Positions 29,031 through 30,184 of a DNA stretch of 64,000 nt are shown one piece after another (position 1 is the first letter of the stretch; each line of letters opens with the position of its first letter). The stretch is from a virus. Taxonomy: Duplodnaviria > Caudoviricetes. The stretch spans positions 1 to 64,000 of IMG/VR virus record IMGVR_UViG_2896201746_000001; one strand, written 5' to 3'. Under the pieces are notes generated by a model. The model searched no databases, had not been told where the DNA came from, and saw only the letters and a program-made list of their open reading frames with translations. The translations under genes were made by a program, and so were the position numbers.

Positions 29031-30184
29031 CAGATCGTCTCCTGCCAGATGCCGCCGGCGAACCGGGCGGTCGCGCGGGGCCGGGGCTTCAGAATCTCGT
29101 CGCGGATGGTGCCGGCGATGGCGGCCATCATCAGGGGCGGCACGGAGCGGCCGACGCGCTCCCAGCGGTGCTTGAACTTGTTGTCGTCGGCGAAGCGGAA
29201 ATCGTCAGGGAAGCTCTGCAGGCGCACAGCCTCCTGGATAGACAGGGTGCGCGGCTCGGCCCAGTGGCACAGGCACGGCACCTTGCCGGTGATCGTCGGG
29301 CAGGGCTGATGGGGCGGCAGCTTGAACCAGTTGAAGCGCGCCTCCTTGCCCGGCTGCGACCAGCCCAGCTTGCGGTAGGCGTAGGTGAAGCAGCCCTGCT
29401 CTTCCAGAACGCTTGCATGTTCCCAGGCCATGCGCGTCCGCGAGCCTTCCTTCAGCCAGTCGCAGTCCTTACTCCCTGGGGGCGGCGAGGGAATGTCGGC
29501 GATGGCTTCGGCGACGCTGACAATCTCGCTGGCCGGCAGCGGACGGGGAAACACCGGGTCGCGCAGCAGATCCTTACGCACGCCGATGAAGATCACGCGC
29601 TCGCGCTTCTGCGGCACGCCCAGGCGATGCGCCTGCACCATCTGCGCCACGACCCGGTAGCCCGGCCCGGCCGCTTCCAGCGCCCGGTGAATCTCGGCGA
29701 AGTAGCCCTTCGCCACGCCCTTGAATAGGCCCGACACGTTCTCGGCGACGAAGGTCTTCGGCTGAAGCCCGCCCAGCATGCGGGTGAACTCGAAGAACAG
29801 GTCGTCGGAGCGCTGGTGATAGGAACCGGAATAGTGGACCTCCTCGCCCCAGGCCTTCTCGCGCAGGCCGGAGGTGGAGAAGGTCTGGCAAGGCGGCGAG
29901 CCGTCCAGCACGTCCAGCTCGCCCACGTCGACGCCGGCCAGCTCCAGCAGCTCTTGCGGCTGCACGGTGCGGATGTCGCGCTCAATGACGGTCGTCGAGG
30001 GGGCGTTGGCGCGGTAGGTCGCCGCGGCCTTGTCGACGAACTCCAGCGCCACCGGCACCTTGTAGCCCGCCATCTTGTAGCCGGTCGAGCTGCCCCCGCC
30101 GCCGGCGAAGGTCGAGATGACCTTCAGCCCGGCCGAGCCTGCCAGCTCGTTGTTGATGACGTCGATGGACGGCACGCGGATCAC
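29030..30184 (-). CDS. C5-cytosine DNA methyltransferase homologue, probable carboxymethyltransferase
   Basis: GTG start after GAAGGAG; motifs FAGGGG, GSPPCQ, ENV, QKRER, RLQSFPD; motif X reads GRSVPP instead of GNSV. Confidence 0.9.
   Translation of the reverse strand: MIRVPSIDVINNELAGSAGLKVISTFAGGGGSSTGYKMAGYKVPVALEFVDKAAATYRANAPSTTVIERDIRTVQPQELLELAGVDVGELDVLDGSPPCQTFSTSGLREKAWGEEVHYSGSYHQRSDDLFFEFTRMLGGLQPKTFVAENVSGLFKGVAKGYFAEIHRALEAAGPGYRVVAQMVQAHRLGVPQKRERVIFIGVRKDLLRDPVFPRPLPASEIVSVAEAIADIPSPPPGSKDCDWLKEGSRTRMAWEHASVLEEQGCFTYAYRKLGWSQPGKEARFNWFKLPPHQPCPTITGKVPCLCHWAEPRTLSIQEAVRLQSFPDDFRFADDNKFKHRWERVGRSVPPLMMAAIAGTIRDEILKPRPRATARFAGGIWQETI

Follow-up and report, generated by a model that had tools for sequence, protein, structure and literature searches.

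The virus genome analysed here encodes a C5-cytosine methyltransferase-fold protein, P0001, that we predict to be a DNA cytosine C5-carboxymethyltransferase. The stretch under study, hereafter called the window, covers positions 1 to 64,000 of one virus record of 112,120 bp (IMGVR_UViG_2896201746_000001), which has direct terminal repeats, is estimated to be complete and has a G+C content of ~66%. P0001 is a 384-aa protein encoded on the minus strand at 29030..30184, with a GTG start at 30184. Based on homology, conserved residues, gene coupling and co-occurrence, we assign a probability of about 0.85 to the reading that P0001 is a CmoX enzyme, which carboxymethylates C5 of DNA cytosine using carboxy-S-adenosylmethionine (Cx-SAM) as its cofactor. 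The underlying chemistry was demonstrated elsewhere, with the SpCmoA, SpCmoX and SpCmoY proteins of Synechococcus phage S-B43. By analogy with that system, we infer that P0001 would have the same activity as SpCmoX, and the same applies to the sequence that it targets and to the nature of the amine discussed below.

An earlier note, made from the sequence of the window alone, had proposed that the protein is a natural DNA carboxymethyltransferase that uses Cx-SAM. This proposal, reached independently, is supported but no longer new, given that an enzyme of this kind was published in December 2025 (Yang et al., Nat Commun, 7 Dec 2025; PMC12783734). The structure of that CmoX is PDB 8YF3, and the S-B43 genome is MN018232.1. 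According to that report, SpCmoA converts S-adenosylmethionine (SAM) and prephenate to Cx-SAM, and SpCmoX uses Cx-SAM only, refusing SAM, to generate 5-carboxymethylcytosine at GC sites. Modification of double-stranded DNA by SpCmoX was seen in vitro, with plasmids and in virion DNA. Its Arg350 residue stands at the position of M.HhaI Asn304 and touches the carboxymethyl group of Cx-SAM, and the R350N variant is inactive with Cx-SAM as well as with SAM. SpCmoY, a homologue of asparagine synthetase, ligates glycine onto the carboxylate of 5-carboxymethylcytosine, and the glycine amide is present in S-B43 virion DNA. The same authors mined 5,615 candidate CmoX sequences from IMG/VR v4, UniProtKB and MGnify using SPPC and Arg350 as criteria, and the contigs of these candidates contained 4,257 CmoA, 2,251 ligase and 1,660 ParBc sequences (PMC12783734). 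The window gene may be among the 5,615 published candidates, which were mined partly from IMG/VR. Our literature search retrieved no further paper on natural CmoX enzymes besides PMC12783734. The earlier note had also cited two engineered precedents. One of them, M.MpeI N374K, in which a basic motif X residue allows Cx-SAM to be used and 5-carboxymethylcytosine to be made, is confirmed in PMC12783734 and PMC13288465. The other, Dcm N436K, has no occurrence in PMC13288465, the sole paper checked for that term.

What distinguishes P0001 from an ordinary C5-methyltransferase? As regards the overall family, the Pfam model PF00145 is covered from position 1 to position 322 of 324 (E=1.6e-50) and TIGR00675 is passed with 148.6 bits at a cut-off of 100.65. 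P0001 is the sole PF00145 gene of the whole 112-kb genome, which contains no second C5-methyltransferase. Motifs I (FAGGGG), IV (GSPPCQTFS), VI (ENV), VIII (QKRER) and IX (RTLSIQEAVRLQSFPDDF) are each readable in the translation and are thus intact, as had been stated before. Cys99 of the GSPPC segment in motif IV (codon 29888..29890, minus strand) aligns with SpCmoX Cys98 and is the predicted catalytic nucleophile. In motif X, the reverse complement of plus-strand positions 29138-29155, GTC GGC CGC TCC GTG CCG, is translated as V344 G345 R346 S347 V348 P349 (WERVGRSVPP in a wider reading). This minus-strand translation (VGRSVP) bears out the assignment of Arg346, in place of the canonical Asn, to the CGC codon at 29147..29149. 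The 384-aa start is backed by P0003, a 99% identical database protein that is also 384 aa long, and by homologue alignments that begin at residues 1-19. A longer 494-aa reading frame for the CmoX gene, which overlaps the upstream gene, is unsupported in view of both observations. P0010, P0012 and P0008 are CmoX homologues with 56-57% identity to P0001. At the DNA level, no near-identical phage sequence emerged when 20 kb of the window were compared by megablast with 50,697 phage records, the one match being an irrelevant stretch of 157 bp.

The register of motif X was assessed by alignment with proteins of known structure. In a phmmer search, the top PDB match of P0001 is SpCmoX itself (8YF3; E=5e-64, residues 17-366), with a runner-up at E=6e-22. 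M.HaeIII (1DCT) and M.HhaI (1MHT) are far weaker matches, with E values of 7e-21 and 1.5e-7, respectively. The phmmer alignment with 8YF3 pairs WERVGRSVPPLMMAAIAG with TERVGRMVPPLMMKAIAE and places Arg346 opposite Arg350, and the two residues also face each other when P0001 is aligned separately, by MAFFT, with the CmoX gene of S-B43. In the phmmer alignments with M.HaeIII (MIGNAVP) and 3G7U (QIGNSVSP), the Arg346 column holds the canonical Asn. Thus, Arg346 does occupy the motif X Asn column, in agreement with the register assumed in the earlier note.

The similarity between P0001 and SpCmoX extends beyond motif X. The two proteins share 38.7% identity over 380 aa (E=3e-74), and all of the residues named for SpCmoX in PMC12783734, both cofactor-binding and catalytic, are retained in P0001 in the MAFFT alignment. 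F26, E48, F49 and D70 of P0001 are identical to F25, E47, F48 and D69, which bind the adenine and ribose moieties of Cx-SAM in SpCmoX. Likewise, S96-P97-P98-C99 corresponds to the SPPC segment (S95-C98) of SpCmoX, and the glutamate of the ENV motif (E148) and the arginines of the RxR motif (R194 and R196) are kept. When P0001 and its 120 best homologues are compared, the Arg346 position is Arg in 116 of 121 sequences and Asn in the other five, and GSPPC is found in all 121. Judged from this conservation, Arg346 is not a chance variant.

The Arg residue is also linked to the presence of a CmoA-like gene. We gathered 174 loci with CmoX relatives, consisting of 2 named phages, 12 IMG/VR contigs, 80 metagenome contigs and 80 species-representative genome contigs, a sample that excludes the neighbourhoods of the closest CmoX relatives (P0004-P0023) and of P0124, a relative of the Ddl-like ligase described below. 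Six-frame open reading frames (ORFs) of these loci were searched with the window proteins (phmmer, E<=1e-3). The motif X residue is Arg in 110 loci and Asn in 62, and two loci (L152 and L163) end before motif X and fall in neither class, leaving 172 scored loci. Of the 110 Arg loci, 93 contain a CmoA-like ORF, compared with none of the 62 Asn loci. Where flanks of at least 2.5 kb are available on both sides, the corresponding counts are 45/46 and 0/29. The CmoA-like ORF lies within 200 bp of CmoX in 67 of the 93 loci. Among the 17 Arg loci without a CmoA-like ORF, 15 have less than 1.5 kb of downstream sequence, and L075 has 4.1 kb. CmoY-like ORFs follow the same distribution (34/110 Arg loci and 0/62 Asn loci). 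ParB was tried as a marker of Arg-type enzymes and discarded, as it occurs in 20/110 Arg loci and 13/62 Asn loci and does not discriminate between them. The S-B43 region used for comparison was taken from MN018232.1 (L181) and was located by a class-1 CmoA query of the phage collection, and a short-motif search for S-B43 relatives among the gathered loci found none. The identity to SpCmoX, the retention of the Arg350 equivalent and of every other named residue, and the exclusive association of CmoA-like genes with Arg-type loci together support the proposal of a natural, Cx-SAM-dependent DNA carboxymethyltransferase.

The gene for the predicted cofactor-producing partner lies immediately downstream. 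P0002 (28287..29030, minus strand) is a 247-aa CmoA-like protein, predicted to synthesise carboxy-SAM. Base 29030 belongs both to its ATG and to the stop codon of CmoX, and this one-base overlap, together with the CmoA fold, substantiates the direct coupling of a CmoA-like gene to CmoX that had been noted before. Sequence matches of P0002 in the PDB are exclusively CmoA/YecO structures (4GEK, E=1.2e-8; 4IWN; 1IM8), and the protein belongs to phrog_4752 (E=4.8e-37). An hhalign comparison with Escherichia coli CmoA gives a probability of 99.6% over E. coli residues 17-205. P0002 thus has a class I SAM-methyltransferase fold that is closest to CmoA and extends to the N-terminal segment typical of CmoA. 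An AlphaFold2 model built from 25 clade members has a predicted local distance difference test score (pLDDT) of 87.6. Its top six Foldseek matches in the PDB are all CmoA, with template modelling (TM) scores of 0.75-0.84, and it superposes on 4GEK with a TM score of 0.78-0.84. The nearest non-CmoA folds are the SAM-dependent C-methyltransferases/cyclopropanases CysG and BelI.

One position of P0002 deserves closer attention. Arg199 of E. coli CmoA is the only residue reported to touch the Cx-SAM carboxylate (PMC4482062). In the hhalign alignment, this residue is opposite Glu202 of P0002 (codon 28425-28427), and the carboxylate-binding Arg is thus not kept. Glu202 is invariant in all 25 members of the P0002 clade, as is Arg210 (codon 28401-28403), which is located eight residues further on and corresponds to E. 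coli position 207. The objection raised by Glu202 is offset by the experimentally proven SpCmoA, which has Glu at position 199 and Lys at position 207 and shares 21.6% identity with P0002. Because SpCmoA has this same combination of Glu199 and a basic residue at 207, Glu202 does not speak against Cx-SAM synthesis. The residues at 199 and 207 covary among 95 distinct CmoA-like sequences, namely 92 from CmoX loci, the window protein, SpCmoA (L181:4962-5657) and E. coli CmoA. The observed pairs are (E,R) in 50 sequences, (R,V) in 18, (A,R) in 5, (K,V) in 4, (E,K) in 3 and (Q,K) in 2, with 13 others. The simplest reading of these sequence pairs is that the carboxylate-binding charge has moved to position 207 and has not been lost.

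Several observations weigh against the assignment of P0001 as a CmoX or limit how far it reaches. Besides the loss of the Arg199 equivalent, P0002 misses the cut-offs of its two best NCBIfam models, both of which are CmoA equivalogs (TIGR00740, 43.6 vs 193.3 bits; NF011995, 35.1 vs 285 bits) built on the bacterial CmoA enzymes of the tRNA pathway. Locus L008 is Arg-type and has 10 kb of sequence on each side, and it contains no CmoA-like gene. The association between motif X state and CmoA-like genes stems from few independent events, about 2-5 evolutionary switches in all. The Arg/Asn state switches at least five times on a FastTree tree of 173 sequences, whose alignment retained the motif X column as 1 of ~350 columns. 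Only two phylogenetically independent pairs have adequate flanks, and both point in the expected direction but are too few for a sign test. Because the loci are related and the independent switches are few, the Fisher value of 2e-31 is overstated as a true probability and is descriptive only. The target-recognition region of P0001 (residues 211-300, between motifs VIII and IX) shows 20% identity to SpCmoX, compared with 48% in the catalytic parts, and the GC specificity of SpCmoX is therefore not transferable to P0001.

Would other activities explain the same observations? The transferase could use a SAM derivative other than Cx-SAM, in which case the divergent CmoA-like clade (KELSLxGxQRP, Glu199) would make a different S-substituted SAM and the DNA mark would not be a carboxymethyl group. 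The invariant Glu202 (25/25 clade members) at the carboxylate-binding Arg199 position, the scores of P0002 below the CmoA equivalog cut-offs and the appearance of CysG and BelI as the nearest non-CmoA folds would all suit such a derivative. However, SpCmoA, a proven Cx-SAM maker, also has Glu199 together with Lys207, and the 199/207 covariation in the 95 sequences fits a relocated basic residue. Moreover, CmoX keeps its carboxylate-binding Arg irrespective of the type of CmoA beside it, and no locus has two CmoA-like matches (57 in 57 loci and 36 in 36), so that the types look interchangeable. We therefore regard a different SAM derivative as improbable.

Similar reasoning applies to the nature of the transfer reaction and of its substrate. 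P0001 might be an ordinary SAM-dependent 5-methylcytosine methyltransferase that tolerates the Asn-to-Arg change and has a CmoA-like neighbour with another purpose, given that all C5-methyltransferase catalytic motifs are intact and that Asn-type enzymes with 40-47% identity are mixed among its relatives. Such an activity is difficult to reconcile with the Arg residue in 116 of 121 close homologues, the restriction of CmoA-like genes to Arg loci (93/110 vs 0/62) and the one-base overlap of the CmoX and CmoA-like genes, and wild-type SpCmoX took Cx-SAM only and not SAM (PMC12783734). We consider an ordinary methyltransferase very unlikely. Since SpCmoX R350N is inactive with both cofactors, an R346N variant of P0001 should not be expected to act as a methyltransferase either. 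An action on RNA or on the nucleotide pool instead of duplex DNA is brought to mind by the ancestral role of CmoA in tRNA modification, and some C5-methyltransferase-fold enzymes do modify tRNA. P0001, in contrast, has the usual two-part layout of DNA methyltransferases, in which motifs VIII and IX flank a variable region, a ParB-type DNA-binding gene heads its operon, and its closest characterised relative, SpCmoX, acts on double-stranded DNA, virion DNA included (PMC12783734). The odds of an RNA or nucleotide substrate are accordingly minimal.

With carboxymethylation of DNA cytosine as the preferred reading, we propose the following mechanism for the window system. The translationally coupled CmoA-like protein would make Cx-SAM on site from SAM and prephenate. 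By homology with SpCmoX, Cys99 of P0001 would attack cytosine C6, and the resulting C5 carbanion would accept the carboxymethyl group of Cx-SAM, whose carboxylate would be held by Arg346. A beta-elimination would then free the CmoX enzyme, leaving 5-carboxymethylcytosine written into the phage's own DNA. The carboxylate is probably a handle that a CmoY-like ligase would adenylate and join to an amine. This amine is probably an amino acid, and the neighbouring alanine-dehydrogenase-like enzyme of OCD fold may supply or process it. The modification would likely serve to shield phage DNA from host restriction.

The CmoX gene is embedded in a block on the minus strand, in the order ParB, a 25-aa ORF, OCD-like, CmoY-like, Ddl-like, a 92-aa ORF, CmoX, CmoA-like, four small ORFs and an ATP-dependent DNA ligase. 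All five junctions from OCD-like to CmoA-like are overlapping stop/start codons, with shared bases at 32290, 31385, 30459 and 29030 and a GTGA at 30181-30184. The first gene of the block (33323..33991) encodes a protein with a ParB N-terminal domain and a C-terminal CxxC (PF02195, E=8e-8; phrog_723, E=3e-24). The following 25-codon ORF (33189-33266), whose stop overlaps the ATG of the OCD-like gene as ATGA, could encode a leader peptide or be there by chance. The 92-aa ORF (30181..30459) shares base 30459 with the stop codon of the Ddl-like gene, and its own stop overlaps the GTG of CmoX. It encodes an N-terminal hydrophobic helix and a charged tail that is probably helical. This ORF matches no Pfam or PHROG family and has no relatives in 94 + 4 CmoX loci and two viral contigs with relatives of the Ddl-like ligase, a set that leaves out the 80 genome loci. 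Downstream of the CmoA-like gene, the four small ORFs (27131-28253) have no family match, and the ATP-dependent DNA ligase gene (25660-27051) is preceded by a sigma-70-like site at 27113-27086. A scan of 24500-34500 detected no promoter on the minus strand before ParB, and sites resembling terminators are about as frequent in this interval as chance would give (7 vs 5.7 expected). No tRNAs were found in a scan of the 64-kb window.

Three accessory enzymes encoded between ParB and CmoX may bear on the fate of the predicted 5-carboxymethylcytosine. The CmoY-like protein (31385..32290, minus strand) is a predicted AMP-forming amide ligase of 301 aa with an Asn-synthase/PP-loop domain (LSGGIDS; PF00733, E=3.4e-8) and without a glutaminase domain. 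It is homologous over its full length to the CmoY protein of S-B43, with 25.6% identity over 281 aa (E=8e-27). Closer relatives, with E values of 7e-54 to 1e-71, define a subfamily with members in L015, L038, L096/98, L097, L099 and L131. The OCD-like protein (32290..33192, minus strand; 300 aa from MKPID) is an OCD/mu-crystallin-fold NAD(P)-dependent enzyme and a predicted amino-acid dehydrogenase or imine reductase. It misses the PF02423 cut-off (E=0.0011; 18.5 vs 24 bits), whereas its L038 homologue passes with 31.7 bits. Its family is small, since only 128 of 1.84 billion representative sequences match at E<=1e-3. The family profile A6 has its best match in the OCD-fold alanine dehydrogenase of Archaeoglobus fulgidus (1OMO, E=7e-9), and other family members score only slightly lower. 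An AlphaFold2 model of the OCD-like protein (pLDDT 94.6) has the amino acid dehydrogenase 8J1C as its top Foldseek match (TM 0.71), and the matches listed for this model at ranks 1-31, in which additional chains of one entry are omitted, are all OCD/mu-crystallin structures with TM scores of 0.64-0.71. The same fold also includes imine reductase, cyclodeaminase and diaminopropionate-forming activities.

The CmoY-like subfamily is found repeatedly beside a dehydrogenase-like gene. In four of the five other lineages, the ligase adjoins an alanine-dehydrogenase-like enzyme, which has the OCD fold in three lineages and belongs to the classical alanine dehydrogenase (AlaDH) family in one. In L038 (same lineage as L096/98), L097 and L131, the OCD-like gene lies directly beside the ligase gene in the order ParB-CmoX-OCD-CmoY-CmoA. 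In L015, the closest CmoX locus gathered (52% identity), the OCD slot is occupied by an AlaDH-family gene (L015:858-1958) that matches PF05222, PF01262 and, over its full length, TIGR00518 alaDH (E=3e-63). L099 has a ligase of the subfamily with neither an OCD-like nor an AlaDH-family gene. The occupation of one slot by two unrelated families, both of which include alanine dehydrogenases, suggests that this ligase subfamily is provided by the enzyme with an amino acid, which is possibly alanine. The main text of PMC12783734 does not mention an OCD-CmoY pairing, and our literature search, which was not aimed at the enzyme names, retrieved no paper that places an ATP-grasp or OCD-type enzyme with CmoX.

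Some of the gathered loci have features of their own. The L099 locus (5396-7585) encodes a 729-aa CmoX homologue that contains an intein with a LAGLIDADG homing-endonuclease domain, starting near residue 100 by the catalytic Cys motif. Erwinia jumbo-phage matches to CmoX likewise fall into two pieces over ~2.1 kb and may represent the same intein situation. In L038, a contig of a related phage, ParB-CmoX is closely preceded on its upstream side by an ORF (2238-3050) that encodes the N-terminal domain of an S-adenosylmethionine synthetase (PF00438, E=3.5e-9) and could be a phage-encoded source of SAM for the pathway.

Among the CmoX loci compared, the third accessory enzyme is peculiar to the window. 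P0123 (30459..31385, minus strand) is a 308-aa Ddl-like ATP-grasp ligase whose ATG start shares base 31385 with the stop codon of the CmoY-like gene. Both Ddl domains are recognised (PF07478, E=7e-29; PF01820, E=9e-8), and the best PDB match is DdlA (8EVX, E=9e-32), one of 34 Ddl/Van PDB matches at E<=1e-10. P0123 misses every NCBIfam Ddl cut-off (best, PRK01372 with 175.6 vs 243 bits) and has no PHROG family match. Its sole relative with more than 40% identity is the metagenomic P0124 (45%). The remaining relatives are cellular Ddl proteins with at most 39% identity, with Rhizobiales among the named ones. P0123 and P0124 form a two-member subfamily defined by three changes common only to them, namely TIGG/HIGG for LHGG, K-(L/T)-DWYG for the K-Y..GGS omega-loop and NTxPVLNDRSL for NTxPG(L/M)TxxSL (TIGG, K-L-DWYG and NTQPVLN in P0123). 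The three altered segments (LHG, omega-loop K-Y and NTxPG) are kept in standard D-Ala-D-Ala ligases, and we take them to line the D-alanine sites.

The distribution of the Ddl-like gene differs from that of the other accessory genes. No Ddl-like ORF was found in 178 other CmoX loci (the 174 loci and L096-L099). Single-protein searches of IMG/VR with the Ddl-like and OCD-like proteins returned nothing, and alignment-based scans located the OCD-like gene in one locus, the CmoY-like subfamily in three loci and Ddl-like relatives on two contigs. These two viral contigs, whose Ddl-like relatives are distant, contain no CmoX, CmoA or CmoY at E<=0.01. A role of the Ddl-like gene as a regular part of CmoX systems was therefore rejected, and on the sequences compared the ligase is a lineage-specific addition. 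The one-base overlaps on both sides of the gene nonetheless argue for its expression together with the predicted CmoX system. What would a Ddl-like ligase contribute? Tentatively, the final base could be neither 5-carboxymethylcytosine nor its glycine amide. The CmoY-like ligase would attach alanine or another amino acid derived from a 2-oxo acid, and the Ddl-like ligase, whose site for the second substrate looks remodelled, would add a second residue or pre-form a dipeptide, yielding dipeptidyl-carboxymethylcytosine. We hold this end product to be conceivable, with the odds clearly against it.

The window system can be placed among known systems as follows. It shares the three enzyme types CmoA, CmoX and CmoY with S-B43, and no CmoB is found in the complete 112-kb genome, as in S-B43. 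The CmoA-like proteins of both have the same arrangement of Glu199 and a basic residue at 207, and both ligases are of the asparagine synthase type without a glutaminase domain. A ParB-domain gene is present in the window and on many of the CmoX contigs reported in PMC12783734. The gene order is ParB-OCD-CmoY-Ddl-orf92-CmoX-CmoA in the window and CmoA-CmoY-CmoX in S-B43, whose cluster has no counterpart of the Ddl-like ATP-grasp ligase or of the 92-aa membrane-type ORF. Given the 20% identity in the target-recognition region, the window site may not be GC, and given a ligase that is 25.6% identical and belongs to a subfamily paired with an alanine-dehydrogenase-like gene, the amine may not be glycine. 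M.MpeI N374K has in common with P0001 that a basic residue stands in place of the motif X Asn. However, it was obtained by engineering Lys into a CpG methyltransferase and still derives from a SAM enzyme, whereas the window protein has a natural, clade-conserved Arg and its own cofactor synthase. The E. coli CmoA/CmoB pathway for tRNA cmo5U34 (4GEK; PMC4482062) follows the same cofactor logic, in which CmoA makes Cx-SAM and a transferase uses it. Its acceptor is tRNA ho5U, modified by CmoB, whereas the predicted acceptor in the window is C5 of DNA cytosine, modified by a C5-methyltransferase fold, and Arg199 of E. coli CmoA is replaced by Glu in the window protein, with Arg at position 207. 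The canonical enzymes M.HaeIII and M.HhaI (1DCT and 1MHT) share with P0001 the fold, motifs I, IV, VI, VIII, IX and X and the catalytic Cys, but have the motif X Asn (GN[AS]V) and use SAM, where P0001 has Arg.

Taken alone, the identification of P0001 adds one more example to the known CmoX family and matters little. Across the 172 scored loci, no Asn locus has a CmoA-like gene, which makes the motif X state a reliable annotation rule. Most phage CmoA-like proteins, and SpCmoA as well, lack Arg199 and have a covarying basic residue at position 207, which accounts for the failure of annotation models to recognise these genes. The potentially new part of the system may be its end product, given the ligase subfamily, the dehydrogenase partner and the unique Ddl-like enzyme. 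If the tentative dipeptide assignment were true, dipeptidyl-carboxymethylcytosine would be a DNA base so far undescribed. With a distinct ligase subfamily, an alanine-dehydrogenase-like partner and a unique Ddl-like ligase in one operon, this phage would be well suited to a search for new cytosine hypermodifications of the amide type.

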